The notes beneath the pieces are model-generated. The model had not been told where the DNA came from, did no database searches, and saw only the letters and a program-made list of their open reading frames with translations. This document shows, one piece after another, positions 2,890 through 61,566 of a stretch of 64,000 nt of DNA (its first letter is position 1; every line of letters begins with the position of its first letter). This DNA comes from a virus: IMG/VR virus record IMGVR_UViG_3300037310_000496, one strand, 5' to 3'. Both the position numbers and the translations under genes were made by a program.

Positions 2890-2944
2890 AATCAACCGCA
2901 CTTATACCGCATAATTTATATTGCGTAATGATATATACAGTATA

Positions 2945-3373
2945 ATGGCAATAAAAAACATAAAGAAGATTCGAGTTCGTAAATCTTATTATGATTTAAT
3001 GGAAGATACAGTCACACTGATGAAAAAAAATATAGTGATGACAATCGATGAATTGGCATTAAAAACAGGATATTCAAAACGAAGAATTTATGATGTCACT
3101 ACAGCATTGCATGCTTTGCAGCTGGTAAGTGTACAGCGCAGGAAAAAATGCAAGAGTGAAGTAGTATGGCTTGGCAAGGAAATAACTGAAGCAATCCCAC
3201 CAATTCAACCAATTCAAATTGACAAGGAAATTGAATTGTTCACTTCTCACTTGGTCATACAAACCCAACAAACTGAAATCAACAAAATTTCCCATAGGGA
3301 AGATGGAATCTATATCCAGATGGCGGAACCATCGAAAATATTGATTAGGGGTGAGGACAATGTCCGGATCTGA
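2945..3373 (+). CDS. E2F/DP-like winged-helix DNA-binding protein
   Basis: RKSYYDL...KRRIYDVTTALHALQLVS...EVVWLG aligns by eye with the E2F/DP DBD (KSL...KRRIYDITNVLEGIGLIEK...IQWKG); ATG at 2945. Confidence 0.7.
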   Translation: MAIKNIKKIRVRKSYYDLMEDTVTLMKKNIVMTIDELALKTGYSKRRIYDVTTALHALQLVSVQRRKKCKSEVVWLGKEITEAIPPIQPIQIDKEIELFTSHLVIQTQQTEINKISHREDGIYIQMAEPSKILIRGEDNVRI

Positions 3374-6661: not shown

Positions 6662-7078
6662 TTAGCAAATTAAACATTCAAATTTATTTTCCTTGACTGC
6701 CTTCATTATGTACTCTCTGAAAATTGTAAATGGATGGAGATGTTCAGTTTCTATATGCCAGCTGAAGGCGCTATGTATTCCATTCATGTGATGAAGTATA
6801 CCTTCATGAATGAGTACATGAGTGCTGCCTGGAGTAATGTCCATTTCTTCCAGCATTTTTAAGTCTGAGTCGTTGGATTCAGACTTTAGCTTTTCAAGTA
6901 TCTCTGTATAGACAGAGATTTTCATTTTGTCCATAGTTTCAATGGGAGTGAAAAGAATATTTAAATATTGTTGTATGAACATGTTAGTAAATCGCCTATA
7001 TGATCGATGCTTTAGGCACTTTGCTTGCAACAACCTGTTTCCAGCCAAGATCGTCATTCGTTTTCCATCCGATTTCAT
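6662..7078 (-). CDS. Hypothetical His-rich protein
   Basis: 138 aa, HEGILHHMNGIHS..WHIETEHLH. Confidence 0.5.
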   Translation of the reverse strand: MKSDGKRMTILAGNRLLQAKCLKHRSYRRFTNMFIQQYLNILFTPIETMDKMKISVYTEILEKLKSESNDSDLKMLEEMDITPGSTHVLIHEGILHHMNGIHSAFSWHIETEHLHPFTIFREYIMKAVKENKFECLIC

Positions 7079-9437: not shown

Positions 9438-9472
9438 TTCATCATTCTCCGTGACATTTAAATATAGCACGA

Positions 9473-9543
9473 TGAATATATCCGGAATCGAACCGGAAAT
9501 GACAACTTATAAGACTGCAGTGATTCCATTTCACTATATATTC
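9473..9543 (-). tRNA. tRNA-Ile(UAU), CCA not encoded
   Basis: Acceptor GAAUAUA/UAUAUUC, A73, D arm GUGA-AAUGGAA-UCAC, anticodon loop CU-UAU-AA (stem has 3 G-U pairs), T arm UCCGG-UUCGAUU-CCGGA; TTTAAATA box at 9570-9577. Confidence 0.85.
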
Positions 9544-9611
9544 ATCAAAGAAACCATATTGCACCTTATTATTTAAATATTTGTAGAGGTAACCATAATA
9601 TGTCAATCATG

Positions 9612-9941: not shown

Positions 9942-11477
9942 ATGAATATACTGGATCTTTTTTGTGGTGCCGGTGGTTTGAGTTGTGGTTTCAAAAAAGC
10001 TGGTTTTGCAATTTATGCGGGAATTGACATTGATGGCACATCTTTGAAAACGTTTTCAGTCAATCATCCTAATGCCATTGTATTGAAACATGATATTAGT
10101 CGTCATTCTCCAGAGGAATCAACAAAGACATTAGGAATTGACATATCAAAAATAGACGGAATCATTGGTGGACCACCATGTCAAGGATTCAGTTACGCAG
10201 GGAAGAGACAAAAGACTGATTTGAATAATGTTCTATTATGGAAGTTTGTCGAGTGGGTAAATTATGTCAGACCAAAATTTTTTCTTATGGAAAATGTAAT
10301 TGGACTATTGACATTTGAAAAGGGAATGACATATCAATTATTGTACAATTTAATGTGTAATATGGGTTATGTTGTCCAATGTAAAGCCATGAATTTTGGA
10401 GAATATGGTTTACCTCAAAAAAGAGAACGAATTATTATAATTGGATTGAATATGAACAAGATAGGATTTCCAATTATTGAAAATTTTCATCCCAATGAAA
10501 CTCATTATGTTCCAAAAGAAATGACAGGAATTTATGGAAACAAATCGAAGATGATACACCATAATATTCATGGAATTGATTATTTCTTTGATGGATATGA
10601 CAATTTAAATTCATTGAAGAAATTTGTGAATATCGAAGAAGCCTTTTATGGATTATCAAATGATACTAGTAAATGTGATAATGTTATAAAATTAAATTAT
10701 AATGATAACGACAATGAAGATACTAAACAATCAAATAAATCAGAATTCATTGATTTCGTCACTGACAATAAAAAAACTATTTATACATCTAATCATATAT
10801 CAAAAAAAGTAAATCAAAAATATATCCCAATATTGAATTCAATTGCTGAAGGTCAAATGTATCGTAGCAATAGATTTGGAAACAAATATGTCGGAGTGTG
10901 GGATATTTATGGGAAATCATTTAGTGATATCCAAATTAAAATTTTAAAGGTGATTAGCAAACACAATGATCGATTGAAGAAAAAATATCCATATCAATAT
11001 CTATCATTGCAGGATCTGCATTCATTATTTTGTATACGCCAAGAATTATTGGAACGCATTGATCCGTTAATTCTAAATCACGCTATCGACAATTTAGTGG
11101 ACGATGGATGGATAAAAATAGTATGGGTCGATGACGACTATGACAATATCCCAACATATCGTTTGACAAATAAATCAGGATTATATCCACGTTTTCAACG
11201 ACTAGATAGAAAATCAATTTCAAATACCATCATGACAAATGATTTTGATGGCAGGAATAAAATTCATCCGACTATAAATAGAGGTCTATCATTACGAGAA
11301 GGAGCCAGAATACAATCATTTCCCGATGATTTTATTTTCTATGGTAATTTCAGTGATATTGTCAAGCAAATAGGGAATGCAGTTCCACCTTTAATTGCTT
11401 ACAAATTAGGCATTCATATAATAAAACTTCTTGGCGGAGAAAAAATATCGTCAATTCAATCAAATATAACTATTTGA
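9942..11477 (+). CDS. dcm: DNA (cytosine-5)-methyltransferase
   Basis: Motifs I LDLFCGAGG, IV GGPPCQGFS, VI ENV, VIII QKRERIII, IX-X REGARIQSFPD, QIGNAVPP; long variable region. Confidence 0.95.
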   Translation: MNILDLFCGAGGLSCGFKKAGFAIYAGIDIDGTSLKTFSVNHPNAIVLKHDISRHSPEESTKTLGIDISKIDGIIGGPPCQGFSYAGKRQKTDLNNVLLWKFVEWVNYVRPKFFLMENVIGLLTFEKGMTYQLLYNLMCNMGYVVQCKAMNFGEYGLPQKRERIIIIGLNMNKIGFPIIENFHPNETHYVPKEMTGIYGNKSKMIHHNIHGIDYFFDGYDNLNSLKKFVNIEEAFYGLSNDTSKCDNVIKLNYNDNDNEDTKQSNKSEFIDFVTDNKKTIYTSNHISKKVNQKYIPILNSIAEGQMYRSNRFGNKYVGVWDIYGKSFSDIQIKILKVISKHNDRLKKKYPYQYLSLQDLHSLFCIRQELLERIDPLILNHAIDNLVDDGWIKIVWVDDDYDNIPTYRLTNKSGLYPRFQRLDRKSISNTIMTNDFDGRNKIHPTINRGLSLREGARIQSFPDDFIFYGNFSDIVKQIGNAVPPLIAYKLGIHIIKLLGGEKISSIQSNITI

Positions 11478-17590: not shown

Positions 17591-20500
17591 TTAATATCCA
17601 TCAAAGAAATTTATCAAAGATTGTTGTTTGGTTGTAATAGATACATCCAACAATTGCTGATATACACTTCCCACGATTGTGACATAATGTCTAAGATCTA
17701 TGTCGTTAATATCATTGACCAGTACACTTGGTATCCATCCATTATAACATTTCACATAGTCGACATGTATACCTTTTCTGATGGCTATATTCTTCCCAAT
17801 AGACTTAAAATGATTCTGGAGATTGTTTGCAGCTTGGACAATAGGTGTATTGTTTTTATAGTGATTTTGGTCATGGCATATAGAAAGGCAATTGCATAAT
17901 TCTTTAGTCAATATTTGAGTAAACTGTAACGATACTAGAGAAATATTATTACAATTCAAAATTGATAGGATTAATTTCTCTTTATTTTTGATGATATATT
18001 CTTCTATTTCTTTATTTGATTTTTCAAATGGGATACCATTGATACATTCTTTAAATGCTTTACGAATCAAAAGAGGAGTAGATTTTTTAATGCCTAAAAA
18101 ACCTTTTATTTTGATTTGATGGTCACTAAACAGAATGTAATTCTTTTTCTTATAGAAAAACATTGCCTTCCAAAATCCCTCGTTTGATACTTCCATACCG
18201 TCTTTTGACATTATTGAAACAATATCTGGTGAAACATTAGATGCAAATACTGAATCAGTATTATGACATTTTAAACCGTCAACTGCAAATGTACCCAATT
18301 TCGTCTCGAAGTCGTAGACATAGTTATCCAATCCTGGGAAATTCCGAAAATAAGTTCCGATTGTAAATTTTCTTAGATTTGAATTTCCGGATGTTTGTGC
18401 AAAAAAATATTTTTTTCTACTATAAGAATTAAAAACGAATTTAAATGCACCAAATTGATTGTGAAAAATACGAAATGATGCCATATGCAAATGGTTTGGA
18501 AAAACCCATCGACCATCGTTGAAATAATATCTTTCAATAAAATTATAATATAGTTTCGCTGCATCATAGGATAAATTAAATATTCCTGGATATGGCTTTA
18601 TTTTTTTGCCTTCTTCATCATATACTTCTCGTCTGACGATATCCCATAATTTATTGAACGATGAAAATGTTATGTCAAATCTTGGACGTGTACCATCTTT
18701 TATATATATGGTGTATGATATGCCCCAATCGTAAAACAATCTTCTGCAATATTCAAGAATGGCAATTATATGTTCCAGATATCGTGTATGCCCTTGTATA
18801 CTACAAAAATGGATATTACGTGAAATAGTCATATTGCGTGATGTTGTGCCACAAAGACTGAATATCGACAACATAAGAATTTGGTTGTCATAATTCCCTT
18901 TTGTTGTAGACAGATAATTGACAATAGGAAAAACCTTACTGGACAATGTTATCGAAGAATTGTTTATGTTCTTCATCAACAATATTGGTGATATTTCATG
19001 ACCATCATCAGTGACTAGAGAATGATCACCAGTGACATCAGCCATACCATGTTCCGTTGATACGCGAAACATGGATTTGCTAGTCAAATGTCTAATAAAA
19101 CCCAATAAAGGATTGAATTGGTCACCATCCCAAATTTCAAGATTTTTTCCTGATAAGTCAATCCTCTCTTTGGTTTCATGATGAGTCAATGCTGTATGTC
19201 CACGTTTGATTAATTGATTCCATAAACCAGTCACATCAATATTCATTATTTCTTTTGTTTCTGCAATACGAATGATGACTGGTGATGACCCAGCTACACT
19301 ATCACCATAATGTACTGTACCACCTTCATCTTGGACTGTTTTTATAAGGTGAGCCAAAGATCTTCGTGATGTTGCAGTGACAGCTTGGGCAATATCTCCA
19401 TTAAAAAACATAAATCCTTCATTTGCCATGCATCCATATACTGCATTCATGACAACCTTGAAAAATTGAGAAATGGAAACAGCCGACTGGCTAAATTCTT
19501 TGTGGATTGGATTGCTTCTAGGTTTGTATATTTTTAGTCGTGCACTCCTAAGAAAAATAAGTGACGCTGGAATAATTCCGACATAATGATTGCATGATTT
19601 TATTGGATATGTCGGTAGATCAATGATTGGACATTCAGAATGTCCACAATTGACTGTTGAAAAACATAGGTTATACTTGATGATATTTGTCGGGTATAAT
19701 GATGCAAAATCCAGGACGGAAATGTTGCGATAAATTCCAGGATTAGCTGTAATAACGTCTGCACCAATGATGTTGTTTTTTGTTTTATTACTATATGGGA
19801 TATGAATATTCCTTTGGTGGAGATATCTAATTAAAAATCCATTCCACCATGTAGTTACTCCACTCCTATTAGCTTTATATAAACTTAGGTCACTAAATCT
19901 CATGATAAAAAACAAAATGAAAACTGGAAAATTGTCATTGTGGGTCGCCAATTTAAATGTCAATTGTGCATCCTTAGCATTATAATAAGCCAATTCGTTT
20001 GAATCGAGTGATTCAATACTTCCCTCGTATAAATATTTGCCTTCCTTAATTACTGCCCTTGCAACAGTATCAAGTTTATTGTTTTCATATCCACCATAAA
20101 CATAATTGGATATGCTTGGATTTGAAAAATATTCATAAAGATCCAATACGATTTTATTTTTCCATTTTATTTTTCTGACTTTCATGAATCCAAAAGTTTC
20201 TTCACTCCAATAAATATTAAATTGATTGTTCAATCCAAATAATTCAATGCGGTGAACAATATATGGTACATCAAACCCATCACCATGATAAAATACGAGA
20301 AAAGGTTGAACCATTTGAGATATATAATTAAGGGATGCAACAAGAAGATCTTTTTCACTTTTGAATATTTCAAGTATAAAATTGTCAGGATTAGCATTGG
20401 CATTGGCATTTTCGATGTTCTTTTGATGGAGTATAAAATTATCAATGGTGAATACTCTAGTGCTATCGTATGTAGTAACAGCTATGGATGTTATCGGAAC

Positions 20501-21253
20501 TTGAGAATATAGTGGATCCATCGAATCCATGAAATTAGCTTGAATTTCAATGTCTATACATGCAATAAGTTTATGCCAAGGTGGTAAAGGTGCATGAATA
20601 ATTTCATGAAGTATTTTACCCATACCTATAGCTTCCTTAGGTATAGATTGGTAAACATCCGCATATAGTGCATCATTTGCACTGTCTTTGCTGACAACTT
20701 GAGTGAAAACACCATTGGAAAAAATATATGGCATGCCCATCATCATTTTTGTCTCGTTTAAAACAAGATTCGAATAAATGACTTTATTATTGTAAACAAG
20801 TTGGGAATCACTTTCAAAAAGGGAAGAAATGCCTTTTGGGCCAGAAACTGCTGATGGTGTATGAACCACGACTTTTGTCAATTTCACTTCCGATCCCCTA
20901 ACATCTTTCATGGTTATGTCGACCAATGACTTAATTTTAGAGTTGACATTATTTATCATTAACACCTTGACAACTTCATTTCTTGGCATCTTCACGAAAA
21001 AGAATGGTGATACTGTATTTACGACATATTTGAATAATTTTCCTGAAATATCAATGAAAACAAATTGATGATTACTATCTTTCATATAATTGGTGTCTAT
21101 TAACCAATACATCCCATCATTTTTAATCGTAGGTAAACTATAGTTGTTGAATCTACGATGTTTCTGATTAATAATACCATCTGAATCGGAAACATCGTCG
21201 TTTTGAATCCAAACCGATCCATGCTTTTTTCTCATGTCAACTGGTCTAAGCAT
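17591..21253 (-). CDS. polB: Family B DNA polymerase with intein and C-terminal PIP box
   Basis: ExoI DIE, ExoII YHGDGFDVPYI, ExoIII YNAKDA, A DFASLYP, B KVVMNAVYG, C YGD|TDS split by intein; QQSLINFF at C-terminus. Confidence 0.97.
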   Translation of the reverse strand: MLRPVDMRKKHGSVWIQNDDVSDSDGIINQKHRRFNNYSLPTIKNDGMYWLIDTNYMKDSNHQFVFIDISGKLFKYVVNTVSPFFFVKMPRNEVVKVLMINNVNSKIKSLVDITMKDVRGSEVKLTKVVVHTPSAVSGPKGISSLFESDSQLVYNNKVIYSNLVLNETKMMMGMPYIFSNGVFTQVVSKDSANDALYADVYQSIPKEAIGMGKILHEIIHAPLPPWHKLIACIDIEIQANFMDSMDPLYSQVPITSIAVTTYDSTRVFTIDNFILHQKNIENANANANPDNFILEIFKSEKDLLVASLNYISQMVQPFLVFYHGDGFDVPYIVHRIELFGLNNQFNIYWSEETFGFMKVRKIKWKNKIVLDLYEYFSNPSISNYVYGGYENNKLDTVARAVIKEGKYLYEGSIESLDSNELAYYNAKDAQLTFKLATHNDNFPVFILFFIMRFSDLSLYKANRSGVTTWWNGFLIRYLHQRNIHIPYSNKTKNNIIGADVITANPGIYRNISVLDFASLYPTNIIKYNLCFSTVNCGHSECPIIDLPTYPIKSCNHYVGIIPASLIFLRSARLKIYKPRSNPIHKEFSQSAVSISQFFKVVMNAVYGCMANEGFMFFNGDIAQAVTATSRRSLAHLIKTVQDEGGTVHYGDSVAGSSPVIIRIAETKEIMNIDVTGLWNQLIKRGHTALTHHETKERIDLSGKNLEIWDGDQFNPLLGFIRHLTSKSMFRVSTEHGMADVTGDHSLVTDDGHEISPILLMKNINNSSITLSSKVFPIVNYLSTTKGNYDNQILMLSIFSLCGTTSRNMTISRNIHFCSIQGHTRYLEHIIAILEYCRRLFYDWGISYTIYIKDGTRPRFDITFSSFNKLWDIVRREVYDEEGKKIKPYPGIFNLSYDAAKLYYNFIERYYFNDGRWVFPNHLHMASFRIFHNQFGAFKFVFNSYSRKKYFFAQTSGNSNLRKFTIGTYFRNFPGLDNYVYDFETKLGTFAVDGLKCHNTDSVFASNVSPDIVSIMSKDGMEVSNEGFWKAMFFYKKKNYILFSDHQIKIKGFLGIKKSTPLLIRKAFKECINGIPFEKSNKEIEEYIIKNKEKLILSILNCNNISLVSLQFTQILTKELCNCLSICHDQNHYKNNTPIVQAANNLQNHFKSIGKNIAIRKGIHVDYVKCYNGWIPSVLVNDINDIDLRHYVTIVGSVYQQLLDVSITTKQQSLINFFDGY
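18260..19300 (-). mobile_element. Intein (347 aa) in PolB motif C, with degenerate LAGLIDADG region
   Basis: YGD|SVAGSSPVIIR...FAVDGLKCHN|TDSVF; Ser1, block B TGDHS, terminal HN, Thr+1. Confidence 0.9.
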
Positions 21254-27532: not shown

Positions 27533-28207
27533 ATGGATATTGACCGAATAGTCGACTTAAATCCTAAAACCAGGAAAATCCTGGAAGACAATAAAATTGA
27601 CATAAATCGTCTATCAATGATGAGACCAAAGGATCTCATCGAACTGGGAATTTCAAACCAAGTGGCGTCAAAAATTATCAGAAATGCACTTACCCTTACA
27701 ACAATCGATCCAACTAAAATCACCAAACAGACAAGCAGTCTACCATTAAAAAATGAAACGACAGCAGAAGAAGAAGCAATAATGGAAATCCAAAAAATAT
27801 CGAGAGATGAATGGAATGCCCTAAGTATCGAATATAAACAAAAACTACATCGTATTCATCGTTCAATGGTAAATTTTCCTATGGACAATACAAACAAATT
27901 TGAAGAAGTAAATATAAATGAAGTTGCAAAACTTGACAAAGGAATTGAATCTTTTGATCAAATGGAATATAACATAAAGAAAAAACTGATGGATACTAAA
28001 GAAAGTGATAAAGCTATATTAGATAAAATCATCGAAGAAAATGTACATGGAATTGAAATACCTCCACTTTTTATTGATCAACCACAAACTTCAGATGATA
28101 AAAAAACCGACAACTTGACTCCACGTCAGAGAAATCGTGCCGAAACACGAAAATCAATCGATAAAATGGTTGATGACATGATTGGAACTTCAGGACGGTT
28201 AATATAA
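27533..28207 (+). CDS. Protein with RadA/Rad51 N-terminal HhH-like domain
   Basis: IVDLNPKTRKILEDNKI..NRLSMMRPKDLIELGISNQVASKIIRNA resembles the RadA NTD; no ATPase domain follows. Confidence 0.55.
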   Translation: MDIDRIVDLNPKTRKILEDNKIDINRLSMMRPKDLIELGISNQVASKIIRNALTLTTIDPTKITKQTSSLPLKNETTAEEEAIMEIQKISRDEWNALSIEYKQKLHRIHRSMVNFPMDNTNKFEEVNINEVAKLDKGIESFDQMEYNIKKKLMDTKESDKAILDKIIEENVHGIEIPPLFIDQPQTSDDKKTDNLTPRQRNRAETRKSIDKMVDDMIGTSGRLI

Positions 28208-29157
28208 TGCCAAGTCTATCCAAAGATGGTGAATGGATAACCAGAACCACTGAAATATTAAGGGTGATTTCATGCCAGGAACAAGCATACCATACGAGAT
28301 CGTTGATTGAAAACCTTAACAAAGGCATCGTAAAACAGTACCATGAATTCAATACTATAACAGGAATAATTGGCACTAGCGTGCACCATGAAATACAAAA
28401 ACACCTATCAAAAAAAATCGGAGCAAATCCACCTGAAATAAGACTTAGCAAAACAGAACAGACATTCATTGCAAAAATCAATGAAATTCCAGAAACGAGA
28501 AATGCATTCAAAAGCGCCATGTTAAAATCACTCATGAACTATTATGATTTTATAACAAAATTAAATCCTCAACCTTGGGCTATTGAAAAAAACATTGAAT
28601 ATACAGTAAACAATGGAACTAAACGAGTGAAGGGGACAATTGACTTAGTAGCAATTGTTGATACAAACAAATTGACTGAGTTGACTGGTCAAAAATTTGA
28701 CAGAAGTCCAAATAACGAAAATGTCATTTTGATAGACTGGAAAACTGGACGCAGTTTTAATGATCAACATGCCATACAATTATCCGCTTATTATTATGGT
28801 TCCCAACATTACCTGAAAAAAATACCGGTTCCATATATTACATACAATCAAAAACCATATGCATTAGATGTATATTTAGGAGGAAATTCAGCCCATCCTC
28901 ATTTAGTGGAAATAAACACGGATTTTTTTTTTACAGCCGTTGATAAATTCTTTAATTCACAACAGATTCCAATTTCATTTCCTATAAATGGGAAACCAAC
29001 ATTGGTAACTGGAGGAAATACATGTTATTTTTGTTCATTTATTGGAGCTTGTTCCACTACTCAACGAATAACGAAAAAAATCGATGAAATCGATGAAATC
29101 GATGAAATCAATGAAATCAATGAAATCAATGAAATCAATGAAAAAGGAGAAACATGA
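28207..29157 (+). CDS. PD-(D/E)XK exonuclease (Cas4/RecB-like)
   Basis: GTSVHHEIQ, KGTIDL, IDWKTG, QLSAY, C-terminal CYFC....C. Confidence 0.85.
   Translation: MPSLSKDGEWITRTTEILRVISCQEQAYHTRSLIENLNKGIVKQYHEFNTITGIIGTSVHHEIQKHLSKKIGANPPEIRLSKTEQTFIAKINEIPETRNAFKSAMLKSLMNYYDFITKLNPQPWAIEKNIEYTVNNGTKRVKGTIDLVAIVDTNKLTELTGQKFDRSPNNENVILIDWKTGRSFNDQHAIQLSAYYYGSQHYLKKIPVPYITYNQKPYALDVYLGGNSAHPHLVEINTDFFFTAVDKFFNSQQIPISFPINGKPTLVTGGNTCYFCSFIGACSTTQRITKKIDEIDEIDEINEINEINEINEKGET
29078..29140 (+). repeat. 9-bp tandem repeat x7 (AAATCRATG) encoding DEI/NEI at nuclease C-terminus
   Basis: aaatcgatg x3 then aaatcaatg x4. Confidence 0.9.
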
Positions 29158-35486: not shown

Positions 35487-35590
35487 TCAATCACATGCAT
35501 ATACAATCTCATTTGATATTTAGTAATTTCTATTATTCAGTCGGAAGTTGACAATGACAACAGTGTCATAAGAATATTACGATGTTCGCA

Positions 35591-35656
35591 TTGCTCACAT
35601 TGCTCACATTGCTCACATTGCTCACATTGCTCACATTGCTCACATTGCTCACATTG
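35591..35656. repeat. Perfect 9-bp tandem repeat x7 (TTGCTCACA)
   Basis: Seven exact copies between 35486 and 35709; on the minus strand could encode a 32-aa (NVS)n peptide. Confidence 0.95.
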
Positions 35657-35708
35657 TTATTCATTCCACTGACTATTTGAAAAAATGTAAGCGAATAAGA
35701 CAACTATT

Positions 35709-43768: not shown

Positions 43769-45589
43769 TCATTTCTTATGTGAAATATTCATGAATGTAT
43801 TTTTATAATCTTTGAAATCTTTAGACCCTTTAGAATATTTTAAACCTTTAGAATCTTTAGAACTTTTGGAATTTTTAGAATCTTTGGAATCTTTGGGATC
43901 TTTTGGATCTTTGGAATCACCATTGACGGAATTGACTCCACCATTGCCATCTGAACCATTATGGCTTTCCTTCATTACATTTTGTGGTTTTTGGTACCGA
44001 ATTGGCGCCGACAAATCCTCATCATTGACTTCCCCATCATATCCCATCTCCTCCCGAATTTCACGAGGAGTGAGAATGCCTTCCCTGGCATACACTTGAT
44101 GGCGCAGACGACGGTCAGCAACCGATTCCATAGTATTCCACACCAACTGCGGTATTCGGGAAAGAAACGATGGGGATAAGTTAGGATAGAAGACAACCGG
44201 AGGTTCATTGCCATTCTTGATGTCTTCCAGAACGGAATCACAGTCCTGGACATCCATGCGGGAACCATGCCTCAACGGATCGCCAATTATACAGTCAGGG
44301 TACAGTTGAGTCGAATGATGGTTGGAAACAACTTTTTGAATGAACATCAACTGACGTGACATGATTTCCAGTTGGATGACCGAACCTTCCCCACTTCCAC
44401 CACGACCTGTAAGAACCGGTGGCAAACCAATGCCGTTTGTTTCCTGCTCTTCAAAATATCTCAAGTATGGTTCTGCATTAGGCAAGTTCTTGCCAAGTTC
44501 TTTTTCTTCAACATCGAAATACCATGGCAACAAAATAAACTTGAGATCCGGACGTTTTACAACCTCACGAAAAATACTCTTGGCGCCATCACCTGAAACC
44601 ATGTTTGTCTCGGTACCATATTTGAAAACCATCAAGGATGAGGCTGAATTCTCTATCATCCGAAGAACCCTTTTCTGAATGCCTATCTTCGACTTGGCAT
44701 ACGAAATCAGAGGAACCCCCAATCCATAGCCATATACCGTATCGTCATAATAGGCATTGTAGTTATAATAGACTATCTTGTGACGAGGAAGCATCACGAT
44801 GCCACCCAAATCATCACCTGAATAATCATCACCCTTGGATCTCCTAATGTCCTCCATCTTCTTGATAAACTTGTCTACATCACGATAGGATATCGTAATA
44901 CCACCCAAAGTACGGGTAGTGTCAACCATACTTTGAATGAAATAAAGGATATTGCCATGGTCATCGACCACATTGTGCATGGTGTCAGGAGAAAGGACTT
45001 TTAGACCCTGCACACCCCATCCTCCATCTGCCATACCTTTCTTATCATATATTTTCTCGACCCATACATTGCCAGTCGCCATCATGGAATGAATCTCTTG
45101 ACGAAGGACATGGTCATAGTTGACCTTACGAGCCCACAACTTCCAATAACCCTCCGAAATCTCCGGAAACACCGGACTGGGAGATATCTCCATTGGGACA
45201 TCCACCATCTTGAAACGATAGCCATATCCAATGGAAAGTTCCGACCTAATATTCAAACCCTGGTTTATACCAGGCTCCGCATTGATCATGTCAATGATAG
45301 ACCGATACTTGATATTGTGGGACACCCCACCAAACTCATCCCCAAATTGATCCTCAGACATCACCACCTTAGACTCCTTGCCAGAACCATTGCCCACTGA
45401 CATGGTTTCGTCAGCCAACCCTAGATCAATGACCCGCTTAGTCTTGGTGTTATATATCCCGATATGATTGGACGGAAGACCCTTAAAGATATCATTGAGC
45501 TTGTCAAAAGCCTCTTTCGTGTCCCCATCCGATTCAATCGTCACCGCATTCATCATATCCTTCCACTGGACATTCCCATTATTAACCAT
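43769..45589 (-). CDS. Portal protein
   Basis: ATGNVWVEKI, VYGYGLGVPL, GLPPVLTG, GILTPREIREEMGY. Confidence 0.9.
   Translation of the reverse strand: MVNNGNVQWKDMMNAVTIESDGDTKEAFDKLNDIFKGLPSNHIGIYNTKTKRVIDLGLADETMSVGNGSGKESKVVMSEDQFGDEFGGVSHNIKYRSIIDMINAEPGINQGLNIRSELSIGYGYRFKMVDVPMEISPSPVFPEISEGYWKLWARKVNYDHVLRQEIHSMMATGNVWVEKIYDKKGMADGGWGVQGLKVLSPDTMHNVVDDHGNILYFIQSMVDTTRTLGGITISYRDVDKFIKKMEDIRRSKGDDYSGDDLGGIVMLPRHKIVYYNYNAYYDDTVYGYGLGVPLISYAKSKIGIQKRVLRMIENSASSLMVFKYGTETNMVSGDGAKSIFREVVKRPDLKFILLPWYFDVEEKELGKNLPNAEPYLRYFEEQETNGIGLPPVLTGRGGSGEGSVIQLEIMSRQLMFIQKVVSNHHSTQLYPDCIIGDPLRHGSRMDVQDCDSVLEDIKNGNEPPVVFYPNLSPSFLSRIPQLVWNTMESVADRRLRHQVYAREGILTPREIREEMGYDGEVNDEDLSAPIRYQKPQNVMKESHNGSDGNGGVNSVNGDSKDPKDPKDSKDSKNSKSSKDSKGLKYSKGSKDFKDYKNTFMNISHKK
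43802..43918 (-). repeat. Degenerate 9-bp coding repeat x13 (xSK/xxK) at portal C-terminus
   Basis: DSKDPKDPKDSKDSKNSKSSKDSKGLKYSKGSKDFKDYK. Confidence 0.85.
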
Positions 45590-48851: not shown

Positions 48852-49181
48852 ATGAGTGAAACGAAAATTCCAGACGATCTAGATCATCTAGATCATCTAG
48901 ATGATCTAGATAATATAGATGATCTAGATGATCTAGATGATCTAGATGATTTAGATGATCTAGATCTAGACTCTCATATTCATGAGAGTCTAGAAGAGGT
49001 GGAGACACCTGATCTCCACATACTCAACGGGGACATGTACTGTCCCTGTCATTGTCCCGCCACTTCATGTGGCGGGACTGAGCGGGATGAAAACCCGCAC
49101 AACCATTTCCCCCAAGAGGGGGAATTGGAAGCAGGGGATTCCTGCTTCTATTGTAATATGAAAGAGCCCTGCGAGTGCTAG
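48852..49181 (+). CDS. Acidic-repeat, Cys/His-rich small protein
   Basis: (DDL)n N-terminus then YCPCHC..C, CFYC..PCEC; AGGTGG SD. Confidence 0.65.
   Translation: MSETKIPDDLDHLDHLDDLDNIDDLDDLDDLDDLDDLDLDSHIHESLEEVETPDLHILNGDMYCPCHCPATSCGGTERDENPHNHFPQEGELEAGDSCFYCNMKEPCEC
48873..48962 (+). repeat. 9-bp coding repeat x10 (GATGATCTA, DDL)
   Basis: Ten consecutive units with minor variants. Confidence 0.9.
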
Positions 49182-51835: not shown

Positions 51836-51863
51836 TTCACTAGTACATGATCGTGGTAAAAAC

Positions 51864-51923
51864 GATCATGTATACGATGATGTATACGATGATGTATACG
51901 ATGATGTATACGATGATGTATTG
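51864..51923. repeat. 12-bp tandem repeat x5 (GATGATGTATAC)
   Basis: Five near-identical units just after the DUF932 stop. Confidence 0.9.
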
Positions 51924-56531: not shown

Positions 56532-58139
56532 CTATTTGAATTCAGTGTCCACAGAAAATTCATAGTTGTCGTGGGTAAACAGGGAGTCTGATGATGTATA
56601 TATGTCACCATATTGGGTCCCTATGGTATTGGGCTCATATACTTCAAAAAATGGTCGATGGGGCACTGTTTCAGCTGCACGATCAGTTTCGACACCTACG
56701 AACCTAATATGGCTGATTGCAAGGACAAAGGCATCCGCAAAGTCATCAAAACTTCCTTTGGGCGAATGGATCTTTTGGATCTTGCTGATATGGCTTTCTT
56801 CTTCAGTTATATTCTGAAGTTCATGGATCAATTCCTCGTGGTTTTTTTGGATCAGGACCCTGCCAAGACCCATGCCCATCTTGGCATTGTTGTACATGCG
56901 GGCTTTGGGCACCAGATCCATTGATTCACCACGGAGATTGAAACTGATATGGCGTGATATGTTCCTTAGCCATACACTAAGGACATCACCCACATTTTTT
57001 TTGTCAAAAATGACATAGGTGACTGAAAATTGGTTGATGATGTCAATGACATGCTCAAAAATTATTTGCCAGTCATTTCGCCGAATGCGGAATGTATGGA
57101 TAATGACAACCATATCTGTCACTTCATTCACTTCACCTACGACTATGGCAGTATAGTCATGGAGACGTCCGAAGTCGACACCCATGATATAGTATGGGCG
57201 TTGGTTGGAACTCAATCGGTAACCGGTCTCCACGAGGGAATTGAAGATGGTGTGTGACGAGAAAAATGTTGAGCTGGATTCACTCCATCGTGCCAGGTAT
57301 TCTCGCTCAAATTCGTAGTAGTTGGAGTTCCTGGCACTTTCCACTTCGTATATGTTTATTTGGGGCAGTTTGGTAATGGGATTGATGACTTTGAGACCCC
57401 ATGTATAATCATAGTGGTATCCGACAAATCCGTACTTTCTCCCGACTGGAGTCTTGTATGGCTCTTCTCCTGGTGCCAATGGTCGAAGACCCTCAAATTT
57501 CATTCGTGCATCCCATGCATCTTGAAAACGTTTGTAGAATGGTCCTCCTATTTTTCGGCTGGGCGTAGTGGTCATGAGAATTTTTCCATGGGTTGATGAT
57601 GTAGTTGGCAAAGCTGCCGGAAATACATCCGGATGAATAAAATCAGCTTCGTCAAGGATTAGGAGATCAATCACTTCACCACGTATCGATTTGCCTTCCA
57701 TTCCCGGAGGGAAATATTTGACGGTAGATGGTCTTCCGTTGTCCCCTAGCAGGGACAACTCCATTCTTGTCTCCAAGTCATGTTCATGTGGCAAAAATGA
57801 TGACAGGAGTGGATTGAACCGTTGGAAAAGTTTTATCCGTTTGAATGGTTTCATGCCTCCGCTTTCATCTTGACCCATGATTCCTACAGCAGAGCCAGGG
57901 AACATATTTATTTGGTGGGTTGCAACGACCGCTATCGTATCGGTCTTTCCTAGTTGTCTAGAAAAAAGACCCATTTTGCGTGGGTAGGGGTCATTTGCTA
58001 AACCTTCTTGGTAAATGTAGAAATTATAGTTCAAGAATTTTTCAGCGAAATAGCTTACTGATTGTTTAGCTCTTTTGAGAACTTTAGGAGTGATTTGGTC
58101 GATTGATGTGATCATATGATTGCACCTATTGTTTGCCAT
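56532..58139 (-). CDS. terL: Terminase large subunit
   Basis: FSRQLGKT, IRGEVIDLLILDEAD, TTP, REYLARW, GVDFGRLHDYTA, DDFADAFVLA. Confidence 0.95.
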   Translation of the reverse strand: MANNRCNHMITSIDQITPKVLKRAKQSVSYFAEKFLNYNFYIYQEGLANDPYPRKMGLFSRQLGKTDTIAVVATHQINMFPGSAVGIMGQDESGGMKPFKRIKLFQRFNPLLSSFLPHEHDLETRMELSLLGDNGRPSTVKYFPPGMEGKSIRGEVIDLLILDEADFIHPDVFPAALPTTSSTHGKILMTTTPSRKIGGPFYKRFQDAWDARMKFEGLRPLAPGEEPYKTPVGRKYGFVGYHYDYTWGLKVINPITKLPQINIYEVESARNSNYYEFEREYLARWSESSSTFFSSHTIFNSLVETGYRLSSNQRPYYIMGVDFGRLHDYTAIVVGEVNEVTDMVVIIHTFRIRRNDWQIIFEHVIDIINQFSVTYVIFDKKNVGDVLSVWLRNISRHISFNLRGESMDLVPKARMYNNAKMGMGLGRVLIQKNHEELIHELQNITEEESHISKIQKIHSPKGSFDDFADAFVLAISHIRFVGVETDRAAETVPHRPFFEVYEPNTIGTQYGDIYTSSDSLFTHDNYEFSVDTEFK

Positions 58140-58948: not shown

Positions 58949-59128
58949 ATGGAAGACATTGCCACATTGAGCAATAAAATAGAGATGATTTTAGATAAAT
59001 TTACAAATTTAGAGAATCGTGTTAGTCAAATAATCAGTGATATTGCAGTATTGTCAGCTAAAATTGATAGGGCAGAAGTTTTTGCAGAATCACTGCATAT
59101 CAAGTTATTCAATCATTCACATAAATAA
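58949..59128 (+). CDS. 59-aa coiled-coil protein (not in ORF track)
   Basis: MEDIATLSNKIEMILDKFTNLENRVSQI...; TTTAAGTA box 22-29 nt upstream. Confidence 0.45.
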   Translation: MEDIATLSNKIEMILDKFTNLENRVSQIISDIAVLSAKIDRAEVFAESLHIKLFNHSHK

Positions 59129-59206
59129 ATCCATATATTTTTCAACATATAAATCCATAAGTTTTTTAATATGATATTATGATGATAATTATCACACGAA
59201 AAAGGG

Positions 59207-59581
59207 ATGATAATTAAAGTGCTAATAAAAAAACCCAAATCATTGGATATAATATTGGATCTCAGTGGTCATAAAACCCATAAGGTTCAAGTGGACAATA
59301 TGGCTGATCCATATTCGGTATTGACGGAAGCTCATCGACTTGTGGGTCTTATTGAAGCTGATCCAACCTTTCGTGATTACGCTTCAATCGGGAAGTTGAT
59401 TGTAATACTTCCTGGTCTTTCTGTTGTTTCGGCAGCATTCATTGCCGTGTATCATGGAAAATTCGGACATTTTCCAATGATATTATGGTATTTAAAGACT
59501 GCTGATGGCTTTGAAATATCCGATGCCGGATTGGATCTTGCAAGCGTTCGAATTGACGCACGCAAGATCCGTAAGCTATAG
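59207..59581 (+). CDS. csx15: Csx15-like (CARF-related) protein, stand-alone
   Basis: LIVILPGLS..SAAFIAVYHGKFGHFPMI...FEI..LDLASVRIDAR matches Csx15 pattern (P.L....LLAELHGRMGYFP...EV..I.DLQ.VR..AR). Confidence 0.7.
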   Translation: MIIKVLIKKPKSLDIILDLSGHKTHKVQVDNMADPYSVLTEAHRLVGLIEADPTFRDYASIGKLIVILPGLSVVSAAFIAVYHGKFGHFPMILWYLKTADGFEISDAGLDLASVRIDARKIRKL

Positions 59582-59667
59582 TTCCTATTGTTTCCATTCA
59601 TTCCATTCTTTTCAATTTTTTACTTGTTTTATTTTAAATACTGCAATTGCCAATAAGATACTGTCAT

Positions 59668-61140: not shown

Positions 61141-61566
61141 TTATACTGTCATGAATTTGCTGCTGGTGGAATCGGTGATTTGTGCCGATACTGTAGTAGG
61201 TGGACTTGGATCCGGATTTAAAGTGTTTGGATCTACAGCTGGAACAGCAGTCACTGTGACATCCCAAGTGGCATTGGTTCTTGCAACCTTAATTCCTTCA
61301 ATATATAATTTAGTAGCCATACCAGTGATATTAGTTGCACCAGTGCCAGTTAATAATCCGGGTGTAACATAAATACCTTTAGTGTATGTGGAAATATATG
61401 TTGCAGACCAAGTGCCAATGTCACTTTCAGTCAGCAGTTTTTTCGTCAACAATGTAACCTTGGATTGATCAACAGCTGGAATTGTGCCAGTTATGGTGCC
61501 TAGCACTTCAGTTCCTTTTGGACTAATTGATACATTTGCACCGTCCACTGCAACTGATATGCTCAT
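61141..61566 (-). CDS. Spike-tip protein (PAAR-like, eCIS Afp10/Pvc10 type)
   Basis: VAVDG..V...SKVT...KKLL.E.D...Y.TPG...T....ATK..IEG..V...PAVDP...PDP; directly after spike gene. Confidence 0.6.
   Translation of the reverse strand: MSISVAVDGANVSISPKGTEVLGTITGTIPAVDQSKVTLLTKKLLTESDIGTWSATYISTYTKGIYVTPGLLTGTGATNITGMATKLYIEGIKVARTNATWDVTVTAVPAVDPNTLNPDPSPPTTVSAQITDSTSSKFMTV

Follow-up and report, generated by a model that had tools for sequence, protein, structure and literature searches.

A stand-alone viral Csx15 protein as a candidate type III anti-CRISPR in a probable Asgard archaeal virus

Main finding

The window analysed here, a 64,000-nt stretch of DNA from a freshwater metagenome, is the genome of a myovirus-type (contractile-tailed) virus and carries a stand-alone gene whose product is confirmed as a Csx15 protein. 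This protein adds an intact representative to the viral Csx15 proteins that have been proposed as AcrIII-3, rather than defining a system of a new kind. Its carrier is an undescribed virus that probably infects Asgard archaea. Judged on the combined analysis, it is a credible candidate anti-CRISPR. Counter-defence of some kind is probably its role, and there is about an even chance that it works specifically as a filament-forming cA4 ring nuclease that damps the type III signalling of the host.

Two papers of 2026 disagree on the use of Csx15 by viruses. Chi et al. noted that none of 28,114 phage genomes contains Csx15 and doubted its use as an anti-CRISPR (PMC13148439), whereas a preprint of October 2026 described more than 20 metagenomic viral copies and tentatively proposed the name AcrIII-3 for URC17498, with its activity hypothesised (bioRxiv 10.64898/2026.10.26.761840). 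A reading of the window made from sequence alone (the sequence-only reading) had proposed a cyclic oligoadenylate sponge or ring nuclease, which is the right pair of options according to the papers on cellular Csx15, but the idea is not new, being present in the preprint for URC17498, a protein 42% identical to that of the window. With the concept of a viral Csx15 anti-CRISPR already in print, what is added here is an intact protein to set against a Skoll gene that looks frameshifted.

Identification of the csx15 gene

The reading frame at 59207-59581 encodes a 124-aa protein that scores 39.9 bits against the NCBIfam model NF040560 (CAS_Csx15; cutoff 35, E 4.4e-10), and Csx15 is its sole match in a PADLOC search (E 4.3e-9). 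Its best PDB sequence match by phmmer is 9TET (E 0.004), and a search of the PDB with a profile of its clade retrieves 9TET (7e-8) and 9TEU (8e-7), the structures of PfCsx15 and CliCsx15, respectively (PMC13148439; bioRxiv 10.64898/2026.10.26.761840). A Pfam search of the protein gave no match at E<=1, and PHROGs likewise offered no model. The Csx15 match claimed in the sequence-only reading is upheld by these searches, and the HMM comparison with Csx15 profiles that it had suggested as a check, now run, comes out above the curated NCBIfam cutoff. The same frame was also called by an independent gene caller on a second assembly of the same run. A GTG at 59219, preceded by an SD-like GGGATGA, may be the true start, and would give a protein of 120 aa.

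Codon-position identity between the window csx15 and five relatives is 49-58% at position 1, 65-71% at position 2 and 28-38% at position 3, and this pattern, with its saturated third positions, points to strong purifying selection. That the gene is non-functional, as a spurious ORF or a pseudogene, is highly improbable and already largely refuted by the score above the family cutoff, the full length, the intact key residues, the selection seen at codon positions and a confident AlphaFold2 model.

Genome context

The gene and the features discussed with it are the following.

28207-29157, plus strand: solo Cas4-like PD-(D/E)XK nuclease (PF12705 at its cutoff; Cys 23, 273, 276 and 282 in Cas4 spacing)
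56532-58139, minus strand: terminase large subunit (PF17289; phrog_2, E 1e-36)
58949-59128, plus strand: 59-aa coiled-coil-like ORF of no family, the sole co-oriented neighbour of csx15
59164-59171, plus strand: archaeal TATA-like box, some 35 nt upstream of the ATG (motif scan; consensus match in AT-rich DNA)
59183-59194, no strand: 12-bp perfect palindrome in the interval between the TATA-like box and the start
59207-59581, plus strand: csx15, 124 aa, ATG start (ORF, HMMs and AlphaFold2 model)
59582-59636, plus strand: T-rich tract 3' of the csx15 stop, putatively an archaeal terminator from its sequence
61141-61566, minus strand: contractile-tail spike tip (PF19267 above cutoff)

Together with the 59-aa ORF, csx15 forms a small plus-strand island that has terminase genes on one side and tail genes on the other, all on the minus strand. 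The opposite orientation of csx15 to the terminase and tail genes, pointed out in the sequence-only reading, is borne out, and the small ORF shares the orientation of csx15. The island sits amid late packaging and tail genes, outside the plus-strand early block at about 47-56.5 kb. The TATA-like box is a candidate for a promoter of csx15's own. The palindrome is a possible operator, a weak candidate because 31 such palindromes occur in the window. A scan of the window for sigma-70 promoters returned chance level only.

The virion and replication genes of the window comprise those for an HK97 capsid, portal, terminase, sheath, baseplate J, spike tip and PolB, and the stand-alone viral setting reported earlier is thereby confirmed. 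No CRISPR-like array was found within the 64,000-nt window (the source contig has 69,421 nt), nor a GGDD cyclase (Cas10) motif in any of its frames, so the virus has no signal of its own to regulate. Within the window, csx15 lies outside any CRISPR-cas locus and is flanked by virion genes. The earlier statement that cas genes and arrays are missing holds for the array and the GGDD motif, but it has to be amended for the solo Cas4-like nuclease, which lies 30 kb from csx15, and for about 5 kb of the contig that fall outside the window. Solo Cas4-like nucleases are usual in archaeal viruses. The PADLOC summary of the window was crowded by methylase matches.

Functional residues and predicted fold

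The residues that correspond to functional positions of the characterised Csx15 proteins map as follows.

59264-59272, plus strand: S20-G21-H22 head motif, invariant in the clade and aligned to the SGH of 9TET and 9TEU
59453-59455, plus strand: H83, the central histidine (HG..GHFP), aligned to PfCsx15 H82 and CliCsx15 H90
59510-59512, plus strand: F102, the adenine-stacking aromatic (Y113 in CliCsx15, F106 in HaCsx15 and PfCsx15)
59549-59572, plus strand: tail arginines R115, R119 and R122 (RxxxRxxR), from direct alignment to 9TET and a residue table

H22 is the counterpart of the catalytic HaCsx15 H8, CliCsx15 H13 and PfCsx15 H11, and S20 aligns with PfCsx15 S9. The three tail arginines correspond by direct alignment to PfCsx15 R116, R120 and R123, and to R118, R122 and the catalytic R125 of HaCsx15, whose equivalents (H8, R118, R122 and R125) were matched by motif and spacing only. 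In the published work, CliCsx15 H90 is required for oligomerisation and for most of the activity, and HaCsx15 R125, the equivalent of R122, is essential for catalysis (bioRxiv 10.64898/2026.10.26.761840; PMC13148439). With S20, H22, H83, F102, R115, R119 and R122 all kept, every residue of HaCsx15, CliCsx15 and PfCsx15 that was tested by mutation is present in the window protein. This conservation is not proof of catalysis and does not tell a nuclease from a sponge, since the almost inactive PfCsx15 carries these residues too.

The protein departs from the family at two well-conserved positions, K97 (usually R) and A112 (usually Q), and its head-side segment after the SGH motif lacks 10-17 residues relative to many homologues. 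The shorter segment, together with K97 and A112, may change the specificity. If position 112 is the equivalent of HaCsx15 D115, the resting tail-to-tail tetramer would lack one of its contacts and a ready dimer would be favoured.

The AlphaFold2 model of the protein has a pLDDT of 93.4 and a pTM of 0.86, with residues 1-10 less confident, and the predicted fold is Rossmann-like and SAVED/CARF-related. Comparison of the Atlas model with three Csx15-type clusters gave TM 0.66-0.67. In a PDB fold search the nearest structures were SAVED/CARF proteins, all weak matches (Z <= 4.8), and Csx15 crystal structures were absent from the rows of that search; Foldseek with the window protein returned nothing at E<=0.001. 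Published Csx15 models likewise score modestly against PDB folds (PMC13148439). A complex prediction with four copies and AMP scored 0.05 and was given no weight.

Relatives and mobility

An exhaustive homologue search identified 54 proteins, to which a profile search added four close ones; a word-index search with the single protein recovered only the protein itself. In an IQ-TREE phylogeny run without duplicated proteins, the window protein belongs to a clade of 12, itself included (SH-aLRT 95.8, UFBoot 97). The spacing from SGH to PG in this clade is 46-48 residues, compared with 48-65 in most other homologues, and 13 of 13 clade sequences match NF040560 alone in NCBIfam. One named member, MHA1488569, is 48% identical and comes from a Promethearchaeota (MAG) contig with MCM, TFIIB and ribbon-helix-helix genes. 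Another, URC17498 of Lokiarchaeota virus Skoll Meg22_1214, is 42% identical over 106 aa.

The clade was not found beside type III genes: at eight other clade loci there were no CRISPR arrays, and none of the 95 neighbour proteins gave a PADLOC match to Cas10, Csm or Cmr. The flanks of these eight loci carry helicase, integrase, MCM, TFIIB and many small orphan genes, with many virus-type PHROGs matches. One helicase apart, the window and the clade elements have no genes in common, and this near absence of other shared genes suggests that csx15 moves as an accessory gene; for several clade contigs that are small, or whose covered flank shows no virion gene, mobility is presumed.

No homologue was found among cultured phages and PLSDB plasmids, a GTDB genome scan with one exact pattern gave no clade member, and no true relative emerged from IMG/VR pattern scans (protein, clade profiles, terminase, PolB and capsid). 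Two further short candidate relatives were discarded as chance matches with no NF040560 match; the search concerned was silent in its control genomes as well and is therefore no sign of absence. A CARF3 match near one relative was rejected as a CARF sensor, since it covers the winged-helix part of the profile.

A second clade member, 42% identical, was observed at 698-1027 on a different contig of the same sequencing run. In a separate case, P0009 (GCA_027071915.1, locus 10001-10696) is a duplicated Csx15 that shares the short segment of the clade and whose first unit is degenerate; a quick tree placed both halves in the group of the clade. Its neighbours are leucine-rich-repeat genes, with no cas genes by Pfam matches, and it is relevant to the proposed route from Csx15 to SAVED.

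Comparison with the Skoll protein

As expected of the viral group (vCsx15), the window virus encodes a Csx15 homologue, and URC17498 is related to it (42% identity; clade support 95.8/97). Both proteins have the same short head segment, and both are encoded by stand-alone viral genes with no cas genes nearby. The window virus itself is a different, freshwater one, and the 20 kb that surround the Skoll gene encode no other protein in common with it. That the window is Skoll itself was rejected, as NCBI has no entry for the window protein and the Skoll flank has no further gene in common with the window.

URC17498 has E and V at the positions of R119 and R122, and is the sole clade member without R119. 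At the Skoll locus (10295-10354, alike in three assemblies), the adjacent frame closes with an Arg-rich tail that is about as long as the tails of the relatives, and this suggests a short frameshifting deletion in the Skoll gene. From these sequences, the Skoll vCsx15 is probably impaired. Assaying this example, which has lost the catalytic tail arginine and looks frameshifted, could therefore yield a false negative, and the intact window protein is the better assay candidate. Together, the window protein and MHA1488569, two intact members of the same clade, make the viral Csx15 question testable with existing assays.

Probable host

The PolB of the window (1220 aa, 17591-21253, minus strand) is only about 23% identical to cultured-phage polymerases. 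It ends in a PIP-box-like C-terminus, and many window genes are preceded by TATA-like boxes and GGTGA ribosome sites; this C-terminus and these upstream sites jointly indicate an archaeal host. An E2F/DP winged-helix gene is present at 2921-3373 on the plus strand (PF02319, 30.2 bits; cutoff 25.7). Asgard archaea carry E2F/DP; a literature search for E2F/DP in Asgard archaea found nothing. This gene and the nearest named Csx15 relatives suggest that the host belongs to the Asgard archaea. The commonest CRISPR systems of these archaea are types I and III (PMC13700489). A figure legend names csm2-5 and csx1 in the Guaymas Asgard genomes tied to viruses of this kind. At the level of the lineage, the papers lend support to a type III system in the host.

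Proposed mechanism

Four cellular homologues have been characterised. PfCsx15, CliCsx15 and CsCsx15 form dimers, and on cA4 the dimers of this family line up head to tail, creating a composite site from a head histidine and tail arginines. Metal-free cleavage of cA4 is reported for HaCsx15, CsCsx15 and CliCsx15, making three of the four ring nucleases, and CsCsx15 also accepts cA3-cA6 and CBASS trinucleotides including cAAG. PfCsx15, an orphan, only sequesters cA4 and has almost no nuclease activity. Over-expression of two cellular Csx15 proteins rescued E. coli from type III effectors. Their turnover is slow, with a kcat of 0.27-2.4 per min, and both papers consider them poor anti-CRISPRs for that reason (PMC13148439; bioRxiv 10.64898/2026.10.26.761840).

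The window protein shares with HaCsx15, CsCsx15 and CliCsx15 the head histidine, the central histidine, the stacking aromatic and the three tail arginines, in a single stand-alone domain. The cellular ring nucleases are chromosomal, lie in or near CRISPR loci and reset the host's own signal, whereas the window protein is viral and differs in its shorter post-SGH segment, K97 and A112. Mechanism and in vivo neutralisation are established in the papers for the cellular homologues, and by analogy the viral Csx15 would be a ring nuclease that serves in counter-defence. Once the virus has infected its host, csx15 would be expressed from its own small plus-strand unit, and the protein would dimerise like PfCsx15, CliCsx15 and CsCsx15. 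The dimers would stack head to tail on cA4 supplied by the host Cas10, the ring being clamped between H22 and F102 in the head of one dimer and R115, R119, R122 and H83 in the tail of the next. H22 with R122 would then cut cA4 without metal into A2 products, and cA4 would drop below the level that activates host effectors such as Csx1, leaving type III immunity blunted. If active, the protein would represent a third ring-nuclease anti-CRISPR family, probably of Asgard-virus origin. The slow turnover of the cellular enzymes, the late-gene position, K97 and A112 with the short segment, and the inactivity of PfCsx15 all count against this ring-nuclease reading.

A bolder proposal, with a small though real chance of being right, is that the whole clade consists of dedicated counter-defence ring nucleases of Asgard viruses and mobile elements, in which the short head segment would make the enzyme faster or broader in specificity than cellular Csx15, so that it silences both type III and trinucleotide CBASS signals. 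If true, this would be the first working Csx15-type anti-CRISPR.

Alternative explanations

PfCsx15 provides the model for a second reading, in which the window protein would be a non-catalytic or very slow cA4 sponge that polymerises on cA4 and acts stoichiometrically, still directed against type III. PfCsx15, the best PDB sequence match, is another orphan; it shares the conserved residues and acts by sequestration alone, and the loss of two tail arginines in the Skoll member fits relaxed catalysis in the clade. However, 10 of 12 other aligned clade sequences keep all three arginines, PfCsx15 belongs to a bacterial chromosomal outlier cluster with low identity to the window protein, and type III systems make so much cA4 that sponging is inefficient (PMC13148439). 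A sponge is an unlikely, though still plausible, explanation.

The main target may instead be another cyclic oligonucleotide, such as the CBASS signals cA3 or 3'3'3'-cAAG, or the protein may be of broad spectrum and act against both systems. This is quite unlikely. In its favour, CsCsx15 cuts cA3-cA6 and cAAG, and about 4% of Csx15 genomes have CBASS and no Cas10; against it, HaCsx15, CliCsx15 and PfCsx15 all prefer cA4, and about 80% of Csx15 genomes have Cas10 (bioRxiv 10.64898/2026.10.26.761840). The shorter head-side segment of the clade would fit such a change of target, as would the SAVED domains found as best structural neighbours, although those scores are low (Z <= 4.8) and silent on specificity.

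The location of csx15 amid late genes also invites the view that it is a host-derived passenger or regulator of archaeal chromosomal origin and no counter-defence value, either neutral or tuning a different nucleotide signal at a late stage of infection. The low turnover rates of cellular Csx15 proteins agree with this. In related viruses (capsids 43-53% identical), the 10 kb around the capsid gene showed no csx15, although this stretch ends short of the equivalent site. In addition, one close relative lies on a Promethearchaeota MAG contig and another near an integrase and cellular-type genes. Nevertheless, such a passenger is improbable, given the strong purifying selection with saturated third positions, the recurrence of the clade on otherwise unrelated elements, as expected of a selected mobile accessory gene, and the fact that no clade member was seen in a CRISPR locus.

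Relation to known viral ring nucleases

The sequence-only reading had set the protein apart from AcrIII-1 as having a different fold. This is supported: no DUF1874 match was obtained in Pfam, NCBIfam, PADLOC or a PDB sequence search, and the fold is unrelated to that of AcrIII-1/Crn2 (DUF1874). The predicted SAVED/CARF-like fold points to a relationship with AcrIII-2, a known viral ring nuclease. AcrIII-1/Crn2 destroys cA4 on behalf of viruses, the same role as is proposed for the window Csx15, and is fast and proven in vivo. It has been described as structurally unrelated to CARF (PMC13148439; bioRxiv 10.64898/2026.10.26.761840), and an Asgard (Jordarchaeia) virus has been reported to carry an AcrIII-1 homologue (PMC13700489).

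AcrIII-2 (PDB 9R8S) is viral and cA4-directed, with a head-to-tail composite site. It is a tied top structural match of the window Csx15 (rmsd 4.4 over 98 residues, 7% identity), at a Z of 4.8 that is typical of common arrangements. Its single-chain SAVED domain has 238 aa compared with 124 aa for the Csx15 protomer, and the window protein, a single 124-aa unit with no SAVED Pfam match, is not a two-subdomain single-chain SAVED protein.

Other observations in the window

A C5 cytosine methyltransferase at 9942-11477 on the plus strand (PF00145, E 9e-66) is likely a second counter-defence gene. The portal-capsid-sheath gene order recurs in two related viruses, both undescribed, with lengths of 61 and 87 kb and capsids 43-49% identical. 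Short read matches to the window were rejected as spacers, being of low complexity or mismatched.

The window also encodes a tRNA-Ile with a UAU anticodon (9471-9544, minus strand), a tRNA that is rare in prokaryotes. The 14-bp palindrome AATATTTAAATATT occurs three times in the window, at 6956, 8854 and 54544; two of the three copies precede genes, and the palindrome is a possible bidirectional TATA element. A motif of 33-54 nt resembling a tRNA T arm is dispersed in six plus-strand copies (47681, 48754, 49253, 50196, 50578 and 54577) that precede small early genes; it gave no ARAGORN call and no Rfam match at cutoff, and one copy is common to another contig of the source run. Tandem microrepeats of 9 and 12 nt lie in or between genes at 29069-29149, 35574-35663, 43802-43900, 48863-48979 and 51862-51921.
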